Source: Ignavibacteriales bacterium (lineage in GTDB: Bacteria > Bacteroidota > Ignavibacteria > UBA10030 > UBA8401). Taken from it: a DNA stretch of 64,000 bases. Positions 26,857-38,298 of this stretch are shown here, piece by piece. Positions within the stretch are counted from its first letter, which is position 1. Every line of letters starts with the position of its first letter. Both the position numbers and the translations under genes were made by a program. Under the pieces are notes generated by a model. That model saw only the letters and a program-made list of their open reading frames with translations. It was not told where the DNA came from and did no database searches. The stretch spans positions 34,333-98,332 of the forward strand of contig JAPLFO010000139.1 of NCBI GenBank assembly GCA_026390635.1, in the 5' to 3' direction.

Positions 26857-28671
26857 TCAGTTTCTTTTTTTAGGCAGCTTCGGCAAATTCTTCGTTAAGG
26901 AATTCATAATCCCGCCGCCGCCTTTTTTCGGTGTCACTTTCTGCAGCGGCTGATTATCGTGCTGCTTGTTCACAAAGAACTGCTGACCGATGGAGAGAAT
27001 ATTGAAAACAAAGTAATACAGATTTAGTCCGGACGGGAAGTTGTTGAACAAAAGCCACATCATGATCGGCATCATCCAGACCATGCTTTTCTGACGCGGG
27101 TCGGTCACCGTCATCTTCTGCTGAACGAACATTGTGATACCCATCAGCAGCGCTACGCCGCTCAGTGCGTGGACGCCAAACAGCGGCAGCGTAAACGGCA
27201 GGCTCAGAACAACATCCGGAACGGAAAGATCTTTAATCCACCAGAAAAATTCCGCATGCCGAAGGTTGATCGACGTCGTAAAGAGCGTATAGAGCGCATA
27301 GAGAATCGGCATCTGCAGTAGCAGCGGCAGACATCCGCCGGCCGGATTGACGCCGTAGTCTTTGTAGAGCTTCATCACCTGCTCGTTCATCTTTGCAGGA
27401 TCGTCTTTGTATTTTACCTTGATCTCTTCCATCATCGGCTGGAGAGCCTGCATCTTCTTCATCGACTTCATGCTGTTTTTGTTCAGCGGATGAAGGGCGA
27501 CTTTGATGAGGATGGAGAAGAGGATGATTACGATGCCGTAGTTCGGGATGAAGAGATGCAAAAAGCGAAATAGCGGCATGAATATGTAGTTGTTCAACGG
27601 CCGGATCCAGGACCATCCCATGCTGAGTATGTTGTCCAGGCTGCGCCCAATATTTTTGATTACTGTGAAGTCCAATGGACCAAGAAACACGGTGAAGGAT
27701 GTTGTTTCTTCCATTCCGTTTTTGTAAGGCACTTTGAGGCCGATGGAATAATGCTCAAGAGCTCCGCCGGATGGTGCGCTCTCATGTTTGCCGCCGAGAT
27801 ATCCCCCTTGCGCTTTTTTGTCATCAGAGAGGAGGGCAACGGCAAAATATTTTGTGCGCGCAGCCACCCAGTCTGTCGAACCATTGGTATTCGATTCCGG
27901 TAATTCTCCGACTTTGGCTGCATCGATCTCGCTCAGTTCGCCTCCGGCAAAAAGGAATGCTTTCGCAGACTGCGATTCGTCGACGCTGTTGTATTCCGCA
28001 TAGCGAAGACCGCTTTCCCAGACCACCTGGTACTCATAATTGGCAATAACCCGCTGCACCCCTTTGAATGTCACCGCCGCATTGAACGTATAGTCGCCGT
28101 TCTTAAAGCGAAGTGTTTTGATAATGCTTCCGTCGCCGGCTTTCAGCTCAAAGGCAACAGTGTACTCCTCGCTTCCCGTCAGCGTCACGGATTGCGATGT
28201 CCGGAATGATCCATCAAAAAAGAGCGAACGGGTGTTGATGAGCTTTCCGTCGGTGGTATTGAAGAGGAGTGAAAAATCTCCCTGCTCCGGCGACTGCACC
28301 AGCTGCACGGGATTTCCATCCCATGTTTTGTACTGTTTCATCTCCCACGTACGGATGACGCCGCCTTTGGTGGAAAGTACTGCTTTGTACTGATCTGTTT
28401 CAATCGTCAACAAGCGTTCTGTCCCATTCGCTGCTCCGGAAAAATACTTTCCCAGTGTATCGCGCAGTGATGCGTCTTCCGGCACGGATGTCGTAACAGA
28501 TTCTTTCTGCTGCGAACGTTGTGCGGCAGCCGGTTTTGCGTGGGCCGAGTCTTTTGTCAACTCGGACTTTGATTTCAACTCCTGCTTGTTGGGGTTTGGC
28601 GAAGAGTACCACATCCACGCCATCAATACCACCGCGATGAGAACAAATCCTATTGTTGACTGTTTATCCAT
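26857..28671 (-). CDS. yidC: membrane protein insertase YidC
   Basis: 604 aa with an N-terminal TM, a large periplasmic domain and the C-terminal 5-TM YidC/Oxa1 core. Confidence 0.9.
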   Translation of the reverse strand: MDKQSTIGFVLIAVVLMAWMWYSSPNPNKQELKSKSELTKDSAHAKPAAAQRSQQKESVTTSVPEDASLRDTLGKYFSGAANGTERLLTIETDQYKAVLSTKGGVIRTWEMKQYKTWDGNPVQLVQSPEQGDFSLLFNTTDGKLINTRSLFFDGSFRTSQSVTLTGSEEYTVAFELKAGDGSIIKTLRFKNGDYTFNAAVTFKGVQRVIANYEYQVVWESGLRYAEYNSVDESQSAKAFLFAGGELSEIDAAKVGELPESNTNGSTDWVAARTKYFAVALLSDDKKAQGGYLGGKHESAPSGGALEHYSIGLKVPYKNGMEETTSFTVFLGPLDFTVIKNIGRSLDNILSMGWSWIRPLNNYIFMPLFRFLHLFIPNYGIVIILFSILIKVALHPLNKNSMKSMKKMQALQPMMEEIKVKYKDDPAKMNEQVMKLYKDYGVNPAGGCLPLLLQMPILYALYTLFTTSINLRHAEFFWWIKDLSVPDVVLSLPFTLPLFGVHALSGVALLMGITMFVQQKMTVTDPRQKSMVWMMPIMMWLLFNNFPSGLNLYYFVFNILSIGQQFFVNKQHDNQPLQKVTPKKGGGGIMNSLTKNLPKLPKKRN

Positions 28672-28694: not shown

Positions 28695-28907
28695 TTATTG
28701 TACCGGATCGTAGCCGCCTTTGTGCCACGGATGACATTTGCCGATGCGCCGTACTGTATGCCACAGTCCTTTCACGGCACCGAACTTCTGAAGAGCATCA
28801 ATGGAATATTGGGAACATGTGGGATAAAACCTGCATGTGTTTGCAGGAAGAAGGGGTGATATCAGGGTCTGATAGAGCCTGACCAATGCGATCAACACCA
28901 GCTTCAC
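28695..28907 (-). CDS. yidD: membrane protein insertion efficiency factor YidD
   Basis: 70 aa, …[39 protein letters not shown]…. Confidence 0.85.
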
Positions 28908-28910
28908 GGC

Positions 28911-29336
28911 CTACTCCATCGATGCGAGGATTTTTGCGGCGATCTCATTCCAGTCCTCCTGCAAAGACCGGAGAGATGCCCCGTGTGAAACGGGGCTGCT
29001 GCGTTGTTGATATACCAGAACAATCCGCAGATCTCTGGTATATTCATCTGCGGCGACGCGAAGTATGGTTGCCTTCATCCGATATGCCTCGCGCATCAGT
29101 CGTTTGATTCTATTCCGATCAACTGCGCGCGGCACTCTTTTTTTGGGAACAGCAAAGCCTGTTTTGACTCCCGCGCTCCGGTTATTGCTTTTTGTGTCAG
29201 CGCTTCGTTGAAGCATAACGACGTGGCACAGAAGACAGCCAGAGCGGACGCGTACACCGTTCCGGACGACATCCGCAAAGGCCTTAAAGCCCCGAAGTAT
29301 ATCCGTTTTTTGAAGAGTGTTACGCACACCTGTCAT
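28911..29336 (-). CDS. rnpA: ribonuclease P protein component
   Basis: Basic about 140-aa protein with an RnpA-like RNR motif region (…KKRVPRAVDRNRIKRLMREA…). Lies in the conserved rpmH-rnpA-yidD-yidC context. Confidence 0.8.
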   Translation of the reverse strand: MTGVRNTLQKTDILRGFKAFADVVRNGVRVRSGCLLCHVVMLQRSADTKSNNRSAGVKTGFAVPKKRVPRAVDRNRIKRLMREAYRMKATILRVAADEYTRDLRIVLVYQQRSSPVSHGASLRSLQEDWNEIAAKILASME

Positions 29337-29359: not shown

Positions 29360-29503
29360 CTACTCGTCGCTAACGCTTAGTTTGTGGCGCCCTTTTGCTC
29401 TGCGGCGGGAAAGAACTTTGCGTCCGTTCTTCGTGGACATCCGTTCGCGGAAACCGTGTGTATTCTTGCGCTTCCGATTGTGTGGCTGAAAAGTGCGTTT
29501 CAT
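29360..29503 (-). CDS. rpmH: 50S ribosomal protein L34
   Basis: Not in the ORF track (47 aa). Manual reverse-complement translation gives [47 protein letters not shown]. Confidence 0.9.
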
Positions 29504-29697
29504 CAAAAACTCCTGTGTTTCAAATAAAAAAGGGGTGCCGTCGGCAATCCTTTGCGTATGTCAAATGAAAATAGGAAAAAAAAAGACCATAAACAAGAGG
29601 CGTCGTCTCCCTTTTTTTGCATTTTTGTCTTGACAACCCTTCAATTTTTAATGTATTATTAGTGTTCGAGGTATGGTGTTCTGGAGTGTTGACAAAA

Positions 29698-29930
29698 TGT
29701 TGATAACCTTTCCCCATCCACACCCTGTTTTTGCCCTTGACTTTGTAGCCCGAAATTGAATCTTTTTGGGATGTGAATAACTGGTAAATAAGTCTATCGA
29801 TGTGTTATATGTCAATAAGTTAGCGCGGTTTATCTTATGTTATTAATTTTTTGATCGGTCTAAGTTATTAACTAACGCTTTTCCTCTTTGTTGATAAGTA
29901 TGTTGATAACTTTACGGGAACTGTGAATAA
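29698..29930. promoter_or_regulatory. DnaA-box cluster in the rpmH/dnaA divergent intergenic region (dnaA autoregulation and/or left part of a bipartite oriC)
   Basis: 9-mers matching TTATNCACA, all in the same orientation as read on the minus strand: tgttgataa at 29698, 29889 and 29901; tgtgaataa at 29772 and 29922; ccatccaca at 29715. An AT-rich tract lies at 29760-29880. Three boxes sit within 45 nt of the dnaA ATG. Confidence 0.55.
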
Positions 29931-29933
29931 CCT

Positions 29934-31349
29934 ATGGAACATGTTACGACTTCCCATCTAAGCAGCCTAGAAACAGCGGAAGCAGGAGGGGTTTGGGAGA
30001 AATGCCTCTCTCTTGTCAAGCCACAAATTCCCACACAAAGCTACAAAACGTGGTTTGAACCCATTCGACCGGTGAAAATCGGCGAAGATGGAGAATTGGT
30101 GGTCAACGTCCCCAGCCAATTTTTTTATGAGTGGTTGGAAGAGCACTATGCGCCGTTGATAAAGAACACTATCACACAATTATTGGGCGGTTTGGGACGC
30201 CTCACGTACATCGTCGTCCCCCCGGACGAATCGGACGCTCCTGTTCCCGTACTTCTGAAGGAACGCGCCGTTGCTCCTCCCCCGCTGGTCCAGATGGAAG
30301 AGCTGCTTCCACCGATCCGTTCTCATCTGAATCCGCGTAATACCTTTGCGAATTTCATCAAGGGGGAGAGCAACCAGCTCGCAAGGGCGGCGGCAACAGC
30401 GGTTGCAAATAATCCCGGAGGAACATCTTTCAATCCCCTCGTCATCTACGGGGGAACCGGATTGGGAAAGACGCATCTTGTTCAGGCAATCGGCAACAGC
30501 TCACTGGAATCTGGAAAGGCAAAACGCGTCGATTATGTCTCCAGCGAGAAATTCATGGTCGAGTTCGTGGAGTCCATCAAGTCCGACACAATGGCACACT
30601 TTTCGAACTACTATCGAAGCATGGATATTTTAATAGTCGACGACATCCAGTTCCTTGCCGGAAAAGAAAAGACACAGGATAGTTTCTTCCATACATTTAA
30701 CACGCTTCACCAGTTGGGAAAACAGATTGTCCTTTCATCGGACAGGGCTCCCAAAGATTTAAAGGGACTCGATGACCGTCTCTTGTCCCGATTTCAGTGG
30801 GGATTGACGGCTGACATCCAGCCGCCGGATCTGGAAACCAGAACAGCCATTCTGCGCAAGAAGTGCGATGATGACAGTATTGATATGCCGCAGGAAGTCT
30901 TGGATTTTATGGCGGCAAATGTCACTTCCAATATCCGCGAATTGGAGGGATGTTATATCAGCCTTCTTGCAAAGTCATCTCTCGAAAACAGAGAGATCAA
31001 CATCGATCTTGCACGTGATGTGCTCCGAATCGTCGTCAATGATGTCAGAATGCCGATTACTGTCGATGCTATTCAACGCACCGTGGCAGAGTACTATGAC
31101 ATTCCTACGGATCTGTTGCGTGCAAAAACCCGGCGACAGGAGATTGTTACTGCCCGCCAGGCGGCGATGTATCTTGCAAAGGAAATGACCAATTGTTCGC
31201 TGAAGACCATTGGGCTTCATTTTGGAGGCCGCGACCACAGCACGGTAATTCATGCATACCAATGCGTCGAGGATCAGCTCAAGACAGATTCCACCTTCAG
31301 AGACACGCTCGATCAGATGCGGAAAAAGATCACCAACACTTCTCGCTGA
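29934..31349 (+). CDS. dnaA: chromosomal replication initiator protein DnaA
   Basis: 471 aa with AAA+ (GGTGLGKTHL), sensor motifs and a C-terminal DNA-binding domain (…HSTVIHA…). Confidence 0.95.
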   Translation: MEHVTTSHLSSLETAEAGGVWEKCLSLVKPQIPTQSYKTWFEPIRPVKIGEDGELVVNVPSQFFYEWLEEHYAPLIKNTITQLLGGLGRLTYIVVPPDESDAPVPVLLKERAVAPPPLVQMEELLPPIRSHLNPRNTFANFIKGESNQLARAAATAVANNPGGTSFNPLVIYGGTGLGKTHLVQAIGNSSLESGKAKRVDYVSSEKFMVEFVESIKSDTMAHFSNYYRSMDILIVDDIQFLAGKEKTQDSFFHTFNTLHQLGKQIVLSSDRAPKDLKGLDDRLLSRFQWGLTADIQPPDLETRTAILRKKCDDDSIDMPQEVLDFMAANVTSNIRELEGCYISLLAKSSLENREINIDLARDVLRIVVNDVRMPITVDAIQRTVAEYYDIPTDLLRAKTRRQEIVTARQAAMYLAKEMTNCSLKTIGLHFGGRDHSTVIHAYQCVEDQLKTDSTFRDTLDQMRKKITNTSR

Positions 31350-31391
31350 GACCGAGGAACCTTCCAACCACGTTGAATTCTTTGCCGCTCA

Positions 31392-31770
31392 TTCTGTGGA
31401 ATTACTACTATTTCCTTCTTTCTTAATTCTTTTTCCGGTGTTCATAATTCTGTGGATACCTTGTTGGCCACTGTGAATCCATTGTGAACATCTTCTATTA
31501 TATTGAGCGTGTGCATTCCCAACCGGCGTTTTTTGTGGATAACATAACATTTATCCACGTTGCATTCACAAATTGAGAACTTCCAAATGTATGTTTTCAC
31601 CCCATGGTTACTGCATAATTATTCAATCTTAAAAAGATTGTCCACATATCCACCGTAATACTAATCTTCTTCTTTCTTTTATTCTTAAATCTATTATATA
31701 TATAGATACGACTGAGTATAGAAATTACGTTACTATATATCGATTACCCTATCATTTTCAGGAGAATTAT
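31392..31770. other. candidate oriC: DnaA-box cluster plus AT-rich DNA unwinding element
   Basis: A perfect box tgtggataa at 31534-31542. Near-perfect boxes at 31451-31459 (tgtggatac), 31551-31559 (ttatccacg) and 31638-31646 (ttgtccaca), plus weaker ones at 31392, 31471, 31483 and 31564. A very AT-rich block at 31656-31770 (…ttattcttaaatctattatatatatagatacgact…) lies immediately downstream of dnaA. Confidence 0.6.
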
Positions 31771-32739
31771 ATGTGGACTGCAGCTATTCTTGCCGCATTT
31801 GTCTGTATATGGATAGTGTTTGAATATAGACTTCGTAAGCCCGATCAGTTGGTGCTTCGCGAAACTGCCAAAGGACTGACAATCCGCACGGGACGTTTCT
31901 ATCCGCGTCATTTCAGTCTGGCAATGTCCCGTACCACTCACTCTTTTGCCGTCACCGTGGATGCTTCAGCAAAAGGAAACCTCGATGTGCGCGTGAAAAT
32001 TGCCGTTTCAGTTACAGCGTCCACAGATAATATTTTCGCTTTAATGCGGGTAGGAGGCTGGAATTCCGGAGCGGTTGAAAAGGCAGCGAAAGAACTGGAA
32101 TCGATTTTCATCGGAACAGTAAAAGGATATACCGAACATTTGGATATTGAAAGCATTTCGTCTGCGCAGATTGCACAACATTTGATGCAAAGTGCAAAAA
32201 ATGTTCGGGAGACATTGGGTCTGGAAATTCTATCATTGTCGATACTTTCTTCCGAACCGGTGAACATACAGATATCGGAAGCGCTGCGGCAGAGAGAAAG
32301 CGCGCGCATTCTCGAACAAACAGAAATGCTGAATCAACAGGCACGCGTTGCCACCGCAAGAGCACGTGCTGCTGCCGATGAGGAGATAGCGTTGGTTGAA
32401 CATCAACGCGAGGTGAAACAGATTGAACTGAAGACAGCTTCTTTCGCAAAAGAGTCCCACCTACAATCTCTGCGTGTGGAAGAAGAGATAAAACACACAA
32501 AACTGCGTCTGGAGATGGAAAAGAAAGAACTCGACCTTCTCAAAGGAAGTCCCGAGTTGCTGATGTTGACACCACAGGCGGCGAGGTTGGCCGAAGCAAG
32601 CCAGGGACTGAAAAACGCGCGAACAGTCGTCTCCGTTGGATCAAAGGAAATTGCACAAGGAGTTGAACTGTTTGGTATTTTTCAAAAAGTATTCGAACAA
32701 GCCGTCACGACATACAAGCAGAAATCAAAAGACAAATAA
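31771..32739 (+). CDS. SPFH/band-7 (flotillin-like) membrane protein
   Basis: 322 aa with an N-terminal TM helix, an SPFH domain, then an Ala/Glu-rich coiled-coil (…ARARAAADEEIALVEHQREVKQIELK…). Its stop TAA is immediately followed by the ATG of the next gene. Confidence 0.75.
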   Translation: MWTAAILAAFVCIWIVFEYRLRKPDQLVLRETAKGLTIRTGRFYPRHFSLAMSRTTHSFAVTVDASAKGNLDVRVKIAVSVTASTDNIFALMRVGGWNSGAVEKAAKELESIFIGTVKGYTEHLDIESISSAQIAQHLMQSAKNVRETLGLEILSLSILSSEPVNIQISEALRQRESARILEQTEMLNQQARVATARARAAADEEIALVEHQREVKQIELKTASFAKESHLQSLRVEEEIKHTKLRLEMEKKELDLLKGSPELLMLTPQAARLAEASQGLKNARTVVSVGSKEIAQGVELFGIFQKVFEQAVTTYKQKSKDK

Positions 32740-35700
32740 ATGACGGTCTCTTCATTTCATCTCAAACCGCTGAAAGCGGCGAAGGTATCGGAAATAAGCG
32801 AAGCAACGGCGTCATCCGCCGTGGCACCGGCGGACCGTGTCAATTTCCATATAGGAAATCCAGTGCAGGATACGCGCCTGACGTCGGCGTACTTGCGCAT
32901 GGTTCTTGGAGTGGATATCAACCGCGAAGAACTTGCCGATTCCAATGTGCCGCAATTGCTGCACTTTCTGGGATGGAAGGAGAAGGACGAGGAGGTTATT
33001 GCTTTCTATAGGACGCTAATCCAACGAAGTTCGCCGTACACTCCCCGTGGAGGATTCTCACGCACAGCTCCGCATTCCCTGGTGAAAACTTTTCAGCAGT
33101 GGCTGATGAACCAGCAGGAGCCGCTGGTGTATGATGGAGGAGAAACAAGCGGGCGGCGCGAAATGTCGTTGGGATCCGGCGGAATCGCGGAAGCACTTCG
33201 TGTCTTTTTTCACATGTTGACGCTTTGTGTGGAGATGCGTCCGGTGCACGTTTTTGTTTATGGGACAAGTCTGCCGGCCCCCGTGATGGGGTTTCAGGAG
33301 TTGTTGGTAGAGTATTTGCCGGACGACGAAAAAAAAGCGTTGGAATTTCTTGAGCACGCTCTTGAAGAAAATCCATTTCCTTCCTATGTCGTCCTAGGAC
33401 GAATTTGCAGAGAAGAAACACGGCGCATGCTCCGGTTGTTGAGTATGCGGCACCCATTGTATTTCGTCGAGGCGAATGATGCACCCAACCATCTCTCGCT
33501 GTCGCGCGAAGCAAAACTGGCGCAGAGGGTGATTCGATTTCTATCGGCCGGCATTTTTTCTTCGCGATTCTCCGGACTTTCCACCGTCTTTGTTGCCGGA
33601 CCGTATGAATATCTCGAACTTTTCGACACGATCCATTTTCAGCTCAAAGGAACGCCGTCAGCGTCCGAAATAGAGCTGCTCTCGTATGCCATGACGCATG
33701 ACTTCAGCGCCGTTCCATCCGAGCACATTTCTTCCGACGTTATTATCGACGCTCCTTATGAGGGATTCGGTTTCGGGAACGATCGTGCGTTGCCGCAGAT
33801 CGCCTTCCGCACAGAAGAACGACTTGGCCGCCTCGTTGCGGGGGCGGGGGTAAAACTGAAAGGACTTGCCGATTCGGTTTATCGGCGGACGGAAACTATC
33901 GGTTCCCACATCGGCGATCTTCCATTTATGCAGCCGTTCGATTCGTTTTCCGGAAGGGAAGCAAACAAACTTCTGGAAGACGCACTTCGTTTCATCGATA
34001 GCTCCGAATGGCATGCAGAGCTCACACAGAATTTTCTTGTTGCATTTACGAAGCATCATCCTGAATACCGGTTGAAGAGATGCTGTGCCGCAAGCGGCTC
34101 GTCGCGTACAGCATTGAGTCTGATCGGATTCCACTGCGGGATTTCAGACGTCATTGTTCCAGATCTGAGCTGGACGTACGAGCACTGTTTTCCACGCGTG
34201 GATGCCGTTCCATTGACGGAAGCATTCGATCTTGATGCGGAAGCAATGATTGCCGCTGCCGCCGAAAAGCTTGCGGTCGACCCATCATGGAAAAAACGCG
34301 GGGCGATTGTCCTCAACAATCCGCACAACGCGACGGGAAAAGTATTCAGCGATTCGGCGATCAGGAAACTGATCACGTGGCTGCTGACAAACGGGATCGC
34401 CGTCATCGACGATTTGTCCTATCAAAATGTTGCGCCAAGGGAAGAGTGGGCAGAAGTGCCGACATTGCGTCAAACGGCGGACGAATTGGTGCGCGGCGGC
34501 ATGGTGACAAGCGCACAAACAGATCGTGTAATTACTGTGCACTCCCTGTCGAAAACAGATTGCTTGGCCGGAGCACGCCTTTCGGTTGTGGAACTACGGG
34601 ATGAGCATCTCTTTGAGAAATTCAAGACGATCAACGCAGGAATACCCGCCAACAGCGGTGCAATATTTCTGACGTATTTGTTCTATCGCAATACCAGGGA
34701 ATCGGTGCGCGCGTACTGGCGGCTGCGAAACGCCATATTCCTTGAACGCTCCGCCGCGTTGCAGGCGGCGGCTGAAAATCTTCCAGCAGAACGGAATCCT
34801 TGCGAAATATCCATTATTCCTCCCACCGGCAGCATGTATCCCCTCCTGCGTGTCGGAAAACTTCCTTCGGGACTTTCGCTGGACTGGCTGGCATCAGGTC
34901 TTGCTCGGCAGGGAATCGGGCTGGTTCCTCTCAGTGCATTTGCGCGAACAGAAAAAGGATTTGAGACAGCGCGCCGCACATTTCGTCTGACGCTGGGCGG
35001 AGTAGATGCGGCGGACACCCTGCTGAAAAAAACACGGCGGGTTCTGATCGATCTGAATCATCTGATCGCGGAGGAGGCCGGGCACTACAATCGTACGGAG
35101 CCGCGGCGTTCGTTGCTTGTCCGGCATTCATCGGGAACCGATTTGTGGGATTCGGTCGAACTACGCGTGCTGGAAAACGCGAAGCAATTGGCAGAGAGCC
35201 GGCGCTTCCTGAAAGGAGAGAAGAACTCCGAATCCCTCCGCGGTCACTTTGCCGAGCGGCTTTCCCGCTTCCGGCAGCGCTTTGTGGATCGGCACGATAC
35301 AGCGACAGCTCTTGTGCAGCGTGCACAAGAAAGCAATGGGCGCACACTGAGTGCTGTTCTCGAGAGGGAATTTCATAAAGAGCCGCTTGCCGTGCGCGAG
35401 GAGACATTCCGTCAACGACTCTTCGACCGGACCGTTCATCCGACGCAAATGTACTCTATTCGTTCTGAAGCGGCGTGGGACGTTCTGATTCATGCGACGT
35501 TGCGCGGAAGAAATCCGTCTGAAACGCTGGTGCAGTGTGCGGCGGAGGAAATGCTTCGCGAGTACTACGGCATGAACGTTGCCATCAATTCCGGGGACGA
35601 ATCGCAGGAACTGATTATCGATCTGGATGCAATGATCGCCGCCGAACTTTCGTCCGAGCTTTGGTTCGAACCGTCGCGGGCATTTGTATCGTTCTGGGGG

Positions 35701-38298
35701 GATTGGGACGGCAGCACACGTCCTTCCGGGCAGGGACATCGATTGGTTGCTTCGGTCTTGATTGAAAATGTCACCCGGCAGTCTGCAATTCTTTCTCTTC
35801 TTTTGGCGTGCGAGCCGTCGTTGTCCATCGATCCGTCGCTCCGCACAGCGCTGGAGCACCTCCGCGAGCAGACGGTAAAATTTACGCGGCTCCTCAACAC
35901 GATCACACAACTGACGCATCAATTGGAGAAGCGATATCGCGGGATTCTTCCATTCAACGTTCGCGCAAGTGCTGCGCGGCGATTGGGTATGTCGCTGCAT
36001 CTTGCCCGCGATCCCGTGACGCTGCTGTGGCATCATAACGATCGTTTGGAACGGACAATGCTGGATCTTCGCCGCAAACGTCGCGAGATGCTGACATACT
36101 ATTTTGCGCTGAATAAAAAACTGCGGAAGGAGTTATTCAAACTTATACCCGCGATCCAGCGCAATATTCACGATCCGGCGATTGCACTGGAAGCAGGTAT
36201 GTATCGCGATTTGCTGCGGCGAATGGTTATTACGCCGCGCATCCACCAGAAAATGATTACAGCGCAGGATCAATTTGCAATCGATACAACGGTTCACAAT
36301 ATCAACGAGATCAACGAAATTGCCGGTCGTCATGGCAATCCCGGAATGGTGCTCGCGCTGCAGGTGAGCATGGCGGCAAAAGCGGAAGCACTGATTTCAC
36401 TCGACAGAAAAATGGGAGCTGCGCGCGAAACAATTTTGCGCGAACATCCGGATGCAGATCTGGCAGCGGTCCGGCTGGTGCCGTTGTTTGAGGATCTTGA
36501 TGCCGTAAGCGAGATTCCCCAATATCTGAATCGGGTCTGGGAGTATTGCCTGCAAAGCCGGCGGATGAATCAGGAACCGCGCGAACGTTTTGCGGAAATT
36601 GTGGGAGAAGTCTTTATTGCCGGATCGGACCTGAGCCAGCAAATCGGGCAAACAGCAGGATCGGCCGCATACCGACGTGCAAAAAAAGACCTTATCTTCT
36701 GGTTGGCCGAGCGCGGATTGACGGATGCCGTTCGCTTGAAGATGGGGAGCGGAGAACCGATGCAGAGGCAGGGCGGTTACTATGCAGAGTACTCCGGCGC
36801 GGCGGCATTTCTCCATACGCCCGAAATAGAGCAGCGACTCGTCAGCCAGCTTCATGCATCCACCCGAAAGAGTACGGAATACGCAACGACGCCGTTGATG
36901 GGCGTGTTTGCCGGAGGAGATCTCCGCACATTTCAATCCGCAATTTCGGAACAGCTTCGTTACCTTTCAACCTCCGATCTCTCGCGGCTGCTCCATCATA
37001 TTCGATCGACGCAGCAAACACACCGCAGCGATCTCGTTCGGGCCAGCGAATCATTTGCCGAGACGCGCCTGAAAGGAACGTCGCACGGAACACAGGAACT
37101 GGAGCGCCTCACCATCGGTACGCAGGAAAAGGCATTCGAAGAATTCCTGCCGTTGGTAACCAAGAATTTCCGCCAGATATTGTACGGAGCCGATGACGAT
37201 GTCGTCGGCATTCATCTGATCTCGTACTTCATCGCGAGATCGTCACCAATTCTACGAGATCGTCCGACCGTCCGTCCCAGCCGGACCATGTCCGCAGACC
37301 GCGGACAGAAGATCCTGGAACGCATTGCCGAAACGATTCCATCGTCGCGTTACGGAAGCATGCTGCGGGCGATTGCACATAACCAGGCCCAGACAACCGT
37401 GCTGGGTGTCAATCAATTGACCACCGGATTGTTTCGTGCGCTCGATACGGTTTCGCGGACGGAAACAGGAGAGCGTTCCGTCGAAGCGGCGGCGGTGGAA
37501 CGGATTCTTCCCCATCTTCCGGTCTACGAAATTCTGCAGACGCTCCGATTGTATCACGATCCCGCGCTTCACTATTTGCAGAGAATAGAACGCGCTTTTC
37601 CTGCGGGCAACTCTGCGTTTCTCGCGCTGCGTGAAGACAATGATGCCATGGCAGGATTTGTCGGCATCTTTCAAAAGGAGCTACTCCGGCGTCATGGTGT
37701 CGACGTTCCCGATTTTTTTGACGGTGATACATTTATTCCAGATCTCTTGCCGACACTTCGTCCCGATCTCGCGGTGCTGCTGCAGCCGGATCTCTTCAAC
37801 ACAAATGCCGAGATATTGCGGGAATCCATTCACGGACCTGTTCCATCCTCCTGGACGAAGTCGGTCGATGAACTGCTGGCCGCGCCCCGGAAGATTGCTG
37901 CATGGCGTGAAAACATCTGGCAGATACTGGAGCGGCCGGTATTTCAGCGCGTACAGAGTTTTGCCGAGCTTGCAATTTCGCTTCATTCACTCTCGCGGTC
38001 AACGGGCGCGCCGGAAACAGGCGGGAGCAAAAAGGGATTGAAGCTTTCTCCGGATCTTTCCCATTTCTTCCGTATTGCCCGATCAGACGACGACATGCGC
38101 CAGTTCCTTGCGGCCTCGCTGGAATATCTTTCGTCCATGTCCGGCGGCATGGTGGAGGTGCCCATCAGTATTGTGCGCGCGATGAAAGAAGTCGAGAGGA
38201 TTGCCAAAATTGAGGAGCAGGTGCTGTTGCCCAAAGAGCAGGATGTGCTGCGTTTCTATCTGCTGCAAATAGCCCGGCTCACCGGCGAGAACGGATAA
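32740..38298 (+). CDS. giant (1852 aa) multidomain protein: class I/II aminotransferase-like domain with a large insertion, fused to a full-length divergent phosphoenolpyruvate carboxylase-like domain
   Basis: The aminotransferase domain shows the N-terminal RVNFHIGNPVQDT (as in NLGIGEPDF), AIVLNNPHNATGKVF (NPxNPTG), IAVIDDLSYQN (Asp/Tyr), VHSLSKTDCLAGARLS (PLP Lys and Arg at +8) and a C-terminal small domain ending FRLTLGG at about residue 760. A roughly 420-aa insertion sits between the first and second motifs. The PEPC-like domain shows TVHPTQ at residue 900 (TAHPTE), VPLFEDLDAV at 1247 (VPLFETIEDL), IAGSDLSQQIGQTAGSAAYRRAKKDL at 1293 (GYSDSxKDAG…WAxYxAQ), LKMGSGEPMQRQGG at 1333 (FHGRGGSxGRGG, with His/Arg replaced) and a C-terminal …RLTGENG* (PEPC ends …RNTG). 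Spacing between these motifs matches E. coli Ppc. Confidence 0.65.
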   Translation: MTVSSFHLKPLKAAKVSEISEATASSAVAPADRVNFHIGNPVQDTRLTSAYLRMVLGVDINREELADSNVPQLLHFLGWKEKDEEVIAFYRTLIQRSSPYTPRGGFSRTAPHSLVKTFQQWLMNQQEPLVYDGGETSGRREMSLGSGGIAEALRVFFHMLTLCVEMRPVHVFVYGTSLPAPVMGFQELLVEYLPDDEKKALEFLEHALEENPFPSYVVLGRICREETRRMLRLLSMRHPLYFVEANDAPNHLSLSREAKLAQRVIRFLSAGIFSSRFSGLSTVFVAGPYEYLELFDTIHFQLKGTPSASEIELLSYAMTHDFSAVPSEHISSDVIIDAPYEGFGFGNDRALPQIAFRTEERLGRLVAGAGVKLKGLADSVYRRTETIGSHIGDLPFMQPFDSFSGREANKLLEDALRFIDSSEWHAELTQNFLVAFTKHHPEYRLKRCCAASGSSRTALSLIGFHCGISDVIVPDLSWTYEHCFPRVDAVPLTEAFDLDAEAMIAAAAEKLAVDPSWKKRGAIVLNNPHNATGKVFSDSAIRKLITWLLTNGIAVIDDLSYQNVAPREEWAEVPTLRQTADELVRGGMVTSAQTDRVITVHSLSKTDCLAGARLSVVELRDEHLFEKFKTINAGIPANSGAIFLTYLFYRNTRESVRAYWRLRNAIFLERSAALQAAAENLPAERNPCEISIIPPTGSMYPLLRVGKLPSGLSLDWLASGLARQGIGLVPLSAFARTEKGFETARRTFRLTLGGVDAADTLLKKTRRVLIDLNHLIAEEAGHYNRTEPRRSLLVRHSSGTDLWDSVELRVLENAKQLAESRRFLKGEKNSESLRGHFAERLSRFRQRFVDRHDTATALVQRAQESNGRTLSAVLEREFHKEPLAVREETFRQRLFDRTVHPTQMYSIRSEAAWDVLIHATLRGRNPSETLVQCAAEEMLREYYGMNVAINSGDESQELIIDLDAMIAAELSSELWFEPSRAFVSFWGDWDGSTRPSGQGHRLVASVLIENVTRQSAILSLLLACEPSLSIDPSLRTALEHLREQTVKFTRLLNTITQLTHQLEKRYRGILPFNVRASAARRLGMSLHLARDPVTLLWHHNDRLERTMLDLRRKRREMLTYYFALNKKLRKELFKLIPAIQRNIHDPAIALEAGMYRDLLRRMVITPRIHQKMITAQDQFAIDTTVHNINEINEIAGRHGNPGMVLALQVSMAAKAEALISLDRKMGAARETILREHPDADLAAVRLVPLFEDLDAVSEIPQYLNRVWEYCLQSRRMNQEPRERFAEIVGEVFIAGSDLSQQIGQTAGSAAYRRAKKDLIFWLAERGLTDAVRLKMGSGEPMQRQGGYYAEYSGAAAFLHTPEIEQRLVSQLHASTRKSTEYATTPLMGVFAGGDLRTFQSAISEQLRYLSTSDLSRLLHHIRSTQQTHRSDLVRASESFAETRLKGTSHGTQELERLTIGTQEKAFEEFLPLVTKNFRQILYGADDDVVGIHLISYFIARSSPILRDRPTVRPSRTMSADRGQKILERIAETIPSSRYGSMLRAIAHNQAQTTVLGVNQLTTGLFRALDTVSRTETGERSVEAAAVERILPHLPVYEILQTLRLYHDPALHYLQRIERAFPAGNSAFLALREDNDAMAGFVGIFQKELLRRHGVDVPDFFDGDTFIPDLLPTLRPDLAVLLQPDLFNTNAEILRESIHGPVPSSWTKSVDELLAAPRKIAAWRENIWQILERPVFQRVQSFAELAISLHSLSRSTGAPETGGSKKGLKLSPDLSHFFRIARSDDDMRQFLAASLEYLSSMSGGMVEVPISIVRAMKEVERIAKIEEQVLLPKEQDVLRFYLLQIARLTGENG

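Follow-up and report, generated by a model that had tools for sequence, protein, structure and literature searches.

Where does chromosome replication begin in an uncultured Ignavibacteriales bacterium whose dnaA gene is not followed by dnaN? To address this question, we analysed 64,000 nucleotides of its contig JAPLFO010000139.1 (GenBank assembly GCA_026390635.1; hereafter the window, to which positions refer unless a relative is named), and within it the region 29504-31770, which begins at the rpmH start codon, on the minus strand, ends at the last base before the next plus-strand open reading frame (ORF), and includes dnaA with a spacer on either side. An initial annotation had read this region as a replication origin with clusters of DnaA boxes flanking dnaA, an unwinding element downstream of the gene, and no dnaN. 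That reading is supported by a predicted unwinding module, by the conservation of the locus, and by the GC skew of related genomes, and we conclude, with a probability of roughly 0.8, that the locus is the chromosomal origin (oriC) of an uncultured Ignavibacteria/Kryptonia-like bacterium of the Fibrobacteres-Chlorobi-Bacteroidetes (FCB) group, built on the plan of the Bacillus subtilis and Helicobacter pylori origins.

The spacers around dnaA are strongly enriched in DnaA boxes. The consensus TTATCCACA, allowing at most one mismatch, occurs at 30 sites in the window, as against 10.8 +/- 3.3 in shuffled sequence, and nine of the 30 fall within the two dnaA-flanking spacers (29507-29933 and 31350-31770), which together cover 848 bp, or 1.3% of the window. 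The expected number there is 0.14-0.28 (Poisson P ~1e-11 to 1e-13), the observed box count was never reached when either spacer was put through 2000 dinucleotide shuffles, and the two spacers are the densest 500-bp box clusters of the window. Five of the nine boxes, each of them on the minus strand, lie in the upstream spacer, for which shuffling predicts 0.17; the other four are in the downstream spacer, at 31451, 31534, 31551, and 31638. The boxes that had been noticed on both sides of dnaA are thus real in number, at nine against about 0.2 expected, and the perfect box that had been reported at 31534-31542 is present exactly there, on the minus strand. The two clusters, at 29687-29930 and 31439-31654, are split by dnaA, and both the unwinding module described below and the least stable DNA are found in the downstream half only.

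Next to the downstream cluster lies the block 31656-31770, which had been singled out as very AT-rich and surpasses all other DNA of the 64 kb in both A+T content and instability. It is 76.5% A+T, in a window whose G+C content by 1-kb segments is about 43-56%, and as the most AT-rich 115-nt stretch it has a value reached by a fraction of 5e-5 of such segments. Nearest-neighbour calculations place within this block both the 50-nt and the 100-nt segment of lowest stability in the 64 kb (-0.98 and -1.06 kcal/mol per step, respectively, vs a mean of -1.435), the 100-nt segment being 31656-31756, about 5 standard deviations from the mean in silico. An AGGAG ribosome-binding site of the next gene is located at the 3' end of the block.

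The start of this block carries what we take, from its sequence, to be a module of the basal unwinding system (BUS) type, made up of a fused double DnaA box, a candidate short GC spacer, DnaA-trios, and the AT-rich tract. In the double box, TTGTCCACA (31638-31646, one mismatch) overlaps ATATCCACC (31646-31654, two mismatches) by one base. The trio array reads GTA ATA CTA ATC TTC TTC TTT CTT TTA TTC TTA on the plus strand, every triplet having a central T, and its minus strand is the predicted strand for binding by a DnaA filament. The BUS rule asks for a box with at most two mismatches, a gap of 0-16 bp, and at least three NAN trios, with a second box of at most four mismatches (PMC8287927); the definition of the trios was taken from the same work and from PMC8235120, and the box-to-trio polarity from the latter. 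When the 195 box-like sites of the window (at most two mismatches) were scanned in this way, the site at 31638 was unique, with 11 trios as compared with five or fewer elsewhere. The gap between TTGTCCACA and the trios is 8 bp, within the 0-16 bp of the rule, and ATATCCACC, fused to the first box by 1 nt, fits the four-mismatch limit for the second. The polarity likewise matches that described (PMC8235120), with a box 5'-TTATCCACA-3' followed by 5'-NTN-3' trios on the same strand.

The same module is found in related genomes, which were collected by a scan keeping one genome per species and comprise a close set of loci, with DnaA 60-71% identical, and a large Bacteroidia set at about 50%. The metagenome-assembled genomes (MAGs) of the close set are labelled Ignavibacteriales, Ignavibacteriae, Kryptonia-like, or Bacteroidota, some of them apparently wrongly. 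The close set retains the rpmH-rnpA-yidD-yidC/dnaA arrangement (loci L007 and L010-L014), and box clusters flanking dnaA on both sides are conserved in it. A 17-nt fused double box with the consensus TTATCAACATATCCACA (TTATC[A/C]ACATATCCACA) lies 100-320 bp after dnaA in L007-L013, L015, and L016; L014 has a degenerate copy, and in none of the remaining loci, L017-L086, was this module found 3' of dnaA. Between double box and trios the relatives have a GC stretch of 1-5 nt (CCC, GCCC, CCGC, CTGC or GGAG), and TTA, CTA, GTA, or ATA trios occur at the same place after the double box. Double box and trios together are conserved in 9-10 of the 10 closest relatives, the next gene being dnaN, mreD, or another, and the double-box and trio module of the window is likewise present in MAG relatives in which dnaN follows dnaA. 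The head-to-head pair of boxes, with its -/+ orientation and 17-bp offset, recurs in L008, L013, L015, and L016, and the upstream boxes, in position and orientation, align together with the promoter with L007-L011.

The comparison also yielded some observations on the relatives themselves. In L009, further leftward-facing boxes (GTGTGGATGTGTGGATAACCCTGTGGACA) follow the AT-rich tract at 2680-2720 of that locus, giving its unwinding element boxes on either side, an arrangement that the window does not have. L007, L008 (labelled 'Chitinophagaceae') and L009 ('Acidobacteriota') have DnaA proteins 66-71% identical and the same origin architecture as Ignavibacteria/Kryptonia-like genomes, and their taxonomic labels are probably wrong. 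The origin sequence of the window recurs with 100% identity in contigs from several ERR153022xx runs and with 99.9% identity in one SRR run.

Strand asymmetry gives a divided answer. A minimum of GC skew had been expected at the locus; in the window the minimum of the cumulative skew (1-kb segments) is instead near 3-4 kb, at an amplitude too small to decide, with only a local dip at 31-32 kb, whereas in relatives a change of sign at the locus is seen in five of five. Along with the displaced minimum, several points weigh against an origin at this locus. The skew to its left is about 0 and not negative; when the skew at third codon positions (GC3 skew) is regressed on gene strand and side of the locus, the effect of side is +0.027 +/- 0.015, which has the right sign and is not significant; and there is a gene-strand bias without a switch at the locus. 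The GC spacer of the module is about 3 nt (CCG), two bases of which belong to the second box, as against the usual 4-5 bp, and the trio criterion is a lenient one where DNA is rich in T. Autoregulation accounts for the conservation of the upstream cluster no less well than a role in initiation, and the data are those of a 64-kb window, leaving room for a second dnaA or a stronger origin elsewhere in the genome.

Because skew is very weak in this genome, skew tests within the window are uninformative. In the 10-kb flank to the left of the locus the skew is +0.003, and in that to the right +0.037, so that the right-minus-left difference, +0.034, is weakly positive. Five of the close relatives have 5 kb or more to either side, and in all five this difference exceeds zero (0.024-0.26), being strong in L012-L014 (0.12-0.26) and weak in L007 and L011 (0.02-0.03). 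For Melioribacter roseus, the nearest cultured lineage found in a literature search, the likely origin was placed in the dnaA-dnaN spacer, alongside two clear genome-wide GC-skew transitions (PMC3534657).

As to its genes, the locus occupies the space between rpmH-rnpA-yidD-yidC, a conserved origin-proximal cluster, and the divergent, full-length dnaA, together with the DNA directly 3' of dnaA (Table 1). The encoded DnaA scores 527.7 bits against the NCBIfam equivalog TIGR00362, for which the cut-off is 343.9. Scans of the 64-kb window with Rfam and for tRNAs returned no match, so the spacers are not explained by structured RNA. The initial annotation had described the rpmH cluster as diverging from dnaA as in Escherichia coli, which holds for the gene order and fails for the placement of oriC, as oriC of E. 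coli is not adjacent to dnaA. The divergent rpmH-rnpA-yidD-yidC/dnaA order is the same in E. coli, and there, too, an R1-type DnaA box faces an AT-rich unwinding element; that origin, however, is found between gidA and mioC at a distance of about 40 kb from dnaA, is not divided, uses 13-mers and IHF, and has many GATC sites. While GATC occurs 403 times in the 64 kb, vs about 250 expected for random sequence of the same composition, the two origin spacers hold 1 and 0 such sites, and a Dam/GATC-rich origin of the E. coli type was rejected on these numbers. A strong promoter-like site at 29630-29659 precedes the upstream boxes, which places them in the dnaA leader, and when the relatives are aligned its TTGACA and TATAAT-like hexamers prove to be conserved. 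Between rpmH and this promoter, a short GC hairpin with a T-run (GAGGCGTCGTCTC CCTTTTTTTG, 29597-29619, plus strand) is terminator-like on the plus strand, yet no plus-strand gene ends there.

Table 1. Features of the dnaA locus and its neighbours, with positions in the 64-kb window.
Feature	Position	Strand	Basis
yidC	26857-28671	-	Pfam 60KD_IMP/YidC_periplas
yidD	28695-28907	-	Pfam YidD
rnpA	28911-29336	-	Pfam Ribonuclease_P
rpmH	29360-29506	-	Pfam Ribosomal_L34
Upstream DnaA-box cluster (sub-region 1), also dnaA promoter and leader	29507-29933	.	Box scan, shuffles, alignment with L007-L011
Probable dnaA promoter, TTGACA-18-TATTAT	29630-29659	+	Consensus scan, 11/12 matches; hexamers conserved in relatives
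Upstream boxes, at most 1 mismatch	29698, 29772, 29889, 29901, 29922	-	Box scan
Upstream boxes, 2 mismatches	29687, 29810; 29714	-, -; +	Box scan
dnaA, chromosomal replication initiator, 471 aa	29934-31349	+	Pfam DnaA_N, Bac_DnaA, Bac_DnaA_C
Distal leftward-facing boxes of downstream cluster, TTATGAACA (2 mismatches) and GTATCCACA	31439-31459	-	Box scan
Head-to-head box pair, perfect TTATCCACA and TTATCCACG, starts 17 bp apart	31534-31542; 31551-31559	-; +	Box scan
Fused double DnaA box TTGTCCACATATCCACC, facing AT-rich tract	31638-31654	+	Box scan, conservation
DnaA-trio-like array, 11 triplets	31655-31687	-	3'-NAN-5' x11 on minus strand
Predicted AT-rich DNA unwinding element, core ~31658-31708	31656-31770	.	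A+T content, nearest-neighbour energy
322-aa ORF and 1852-aa ORF, in place of dnaN-recF-gyrB, outside origin	31771-38298	+	ORF list

The architecture resembles that of two origins studied by experiment. The oriC of B. subtilis (incA/B - dnaA - incC) is like the present locus in that box clusters flank dnaA, unwinding takes place in the downstream part, and rpmH lies upstream (PMC6669920, PMC8287927, PMC8235120). Its boxes next to the unwinding element (#6/#7) are fused as well and lead, past a GC stretch, into DnaA-trios and an AT-rich tract (PMC8235120), and incC, too, has distal and proximal box sub-regions (PMC6669920), here with the head-to-head pair and the leftward boxes at 31439-31459. 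The B. subtilis downstream part is located between dnaA and dnaN, in one operon, whereas here there is no dnaN for at least 32 kb, and the GC spacer is shorter here, where function is predicted from sequence. In H. pylori (oriC1 - dnaA - oriC2) the origin is again split by dnaA with the unwinding element in the downstream half (PMC3479198), the ts1/ts2 boxes are fused, with a GC stretch, trios, and an AT tract in succession behind them (PMC8235120), and in strain 26695 dnaA also lacks a following dnaN, being flanked by punB and HP1527 (PMC3479198). H. pylori is a precedent for an origin of this kind without an adjacent dnaN. Its oriC2 boxes are topology-sensitive and of other sequence, whereas the boxes here are near the E. 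coli consensus, and it belongs to another phylum. M. roseus, itself a member of the Ignavibacteria, is alike by position, having its predicted oriC in the spacer just after dnaA, a 303-bp dnaA-dnaN interval (PMC3534657); unlike the present genome, it has retained dnaN after dnaA.

From the sequence elements, their excess, arrangement, and conservation we infer DnaA binding, unwinding, looping, and autoregulation along the following lines. DnaA would bind the double-stranded boxes of both clusters, between which its own gene lies, and the fused, rightward-facing pair at 31638-31654 in the downstream cluster would serve as its anchor. From this double box, a filament of ATP-DnaA would extend onto the minus-strand trios (31655-31687) and would stretch and melt the AT-rich tract (to ~31720-31770), where the replicative helicase would be loaded. 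The distal boxes at 31439-31559 would raise the local amount of DnaA, probably with the help of the upstream cluster at 29687-29930 and possibly by looping out dnaA; DnaA-mediated looping between clusters has been shown for B. subtilis and H. pylori (PMC3479198, PMC6669920). As the upstream cluster is situated between the promoter (29630-29659) and the start codon, it most likely autoregulates dnaA too, by repressing that promoter.

It is quite plausible, though less likely than not, that the origin is instead monopartite, with only 31350-31770 acting as oriC and the upstream boxes solely autoregulating dnaA, an account that differs from ours only in the role of one part. The upstream boxes do all lie where sites of autorepression are classically found, between the conserved promoter-like site and the start of dnaA, there is no BUS-like arrangement among them, and the downstream spacer by itself includes both a distal and a proximal set, like incC of B. 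subtilis, for which the box 6/7 pair and the trios suffice when DnaA is over-produced (PMC6669920). What speaks for a share of the upstream cluster in the origin is that it contributes to origin function in both experimentally studied origins of this layout (PMC3479198), and that at least five boxes of the same orientation have been kept across the clade, more than repression usually needs. We prefer an origin with two box clusters to a monopartite one.

We give little credence to the idea that both clusters are regulatory or titration sites (for autoregulation, or datA-like) and that the origin lies elsewhere, as in E. coli and many Bacteroidia. It would agree with the absence of a clear switch of GC skew at the locus in the window, and with the finding that the conserved double box is not found beside dnaA in Bacteroidia-like loci, which shows that in the wider phylum oriC need not be linked to dnaA. 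Titration, however, needs no fused pair, trios, and least stable DNA in a fixed order and polarity across about ten genomes, and the skew of relatives switches at the locus, as does that of M. roseus in the homologous spacer (PMC3534657). Opening of the DNA at the upstream AT-rich stretch (~29775-29875), which lies among DnaA boxes in the upstream spacer and ranks second in instability among the 100-nt segments of the window, was considered and rejected as highly improbable, since no correctly oriented box with a trio run and hence no box-to-trio module is present there (at most five trios anywhere outside 31638), the stretch is inside the dnaA leader and 72% A+T vs 77% downstream, and the conserved box/trio module is downstream in all relatives.

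An origin attached to dnaA leaves the question of what became of dnaN. It had been stated that dnaA is not followed by dnaN, recF, or gyrB, and indeed tblastn with the DnaN, RecF, and GyrB proteins of relatives found nothing anywhere in the 64 kb, which means that dnaN was not displaced by a short insertion between dnaA and dnaN. The two ORFs found in their place abut, the 322-aa ORF having its stop at 32739 and the 1852-aa ORF its ATG at 32740, and they are possibly translationally coupled. The sole domain of the 1852-aa protein is a class I/II aminotransferase at residues 424-754, with about 1500 residues left without assignment. The 322-aa protein matches no family above threshold in Pfam (E up to 10), NCBIfam, or PDB sequences, and has a marginal match to PbeC in PADLOC (E ~1e-3). 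An SPFH/Band-7 identity, the label given to this gene in the initial annotation, found no match in these sequence searches of Pfam, NCBIfam, and PDB and was dropped. Neither the 322-aa nor the 1852-aa protein occurs in any of the relatives' loci fetched.

In more distant members of the close set, dnaA and the origin module are followed by dnaN (Pfam DnaN in L010, L011, and L013), after which come RecF and GyrB in L011 (Pfam), and the sizes of the ORFs suggest a dnaA-module-dnaN order in L009 and L012-L014. In the two closest genomes, mreD-pbp2-rodA stands directly after the origin (L007 11420-15449; L008 2137-6183) without mreB/mreC, the mre operon having apparently been cut after mreC, at the origin edge; tblastn for mreD, pbp2, and rodA found nothing in the 64-kb window. 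One clade therefore has three different right-hand junctions, namely with dnaN-recF-gyrB, with mreD-pbp2-rodA, and with the 322-aa/1852-aa pair. Since these neighbours differ while the left flank (amylase, a 384-aa ORF, yidC, etc.) is syntenic with L007, the origin module has stayed with dnaA, and what lies past the AT-rich tract has been exchanged at least twice. On this comparison, dnaN was split from dnaA by a rearrangement just past the unwinding element, with the origin kept on the dnaA side. Whether rearrangements in the lineage (genomes with DnaA at least 60% identical) have repeatedly had their breakpoint at the outer edge of the unwinding element is more doubtful, and we offer this only as a speculation; if it were so, the ancestral dnaA-dnaN operon would have been uncoupled more than once.

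The relatives L007 (11440-11480) and L008 (2160-2195) have a clear hairpin and T-run terminator right after the dnaA stop, and none was found at 31350-31440 of the window, either by eye on the spacers or by scan. In the absence of such a terminator, transcription of dnaA may read through the origin into the 322-aa/1852-aa genes, and this may tie the expression of a lineage-specific giant-protein operon to initiation.

The layout itself is already known from B. subtilis and H. pylori, and the current view of how origins work is unchanged by this locus; what sets it slightly apart is that dnaN, normally next to dnaA, has been moved away, and that the junction to the right of the unwinding element has changed repeatedly. 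If our reading is right, it fixes the replication origin, and hence coordinate zero and the orientation of the replichores, for an uncultured FCB-group genome, and it extends the box/trio unwinding module, with conservation at the level of single bases, to a clade whose origins have so far been predicted from skew only. It also shows that rearrangement of the locus leaves the origin joined to dnaA and not to dnaN.

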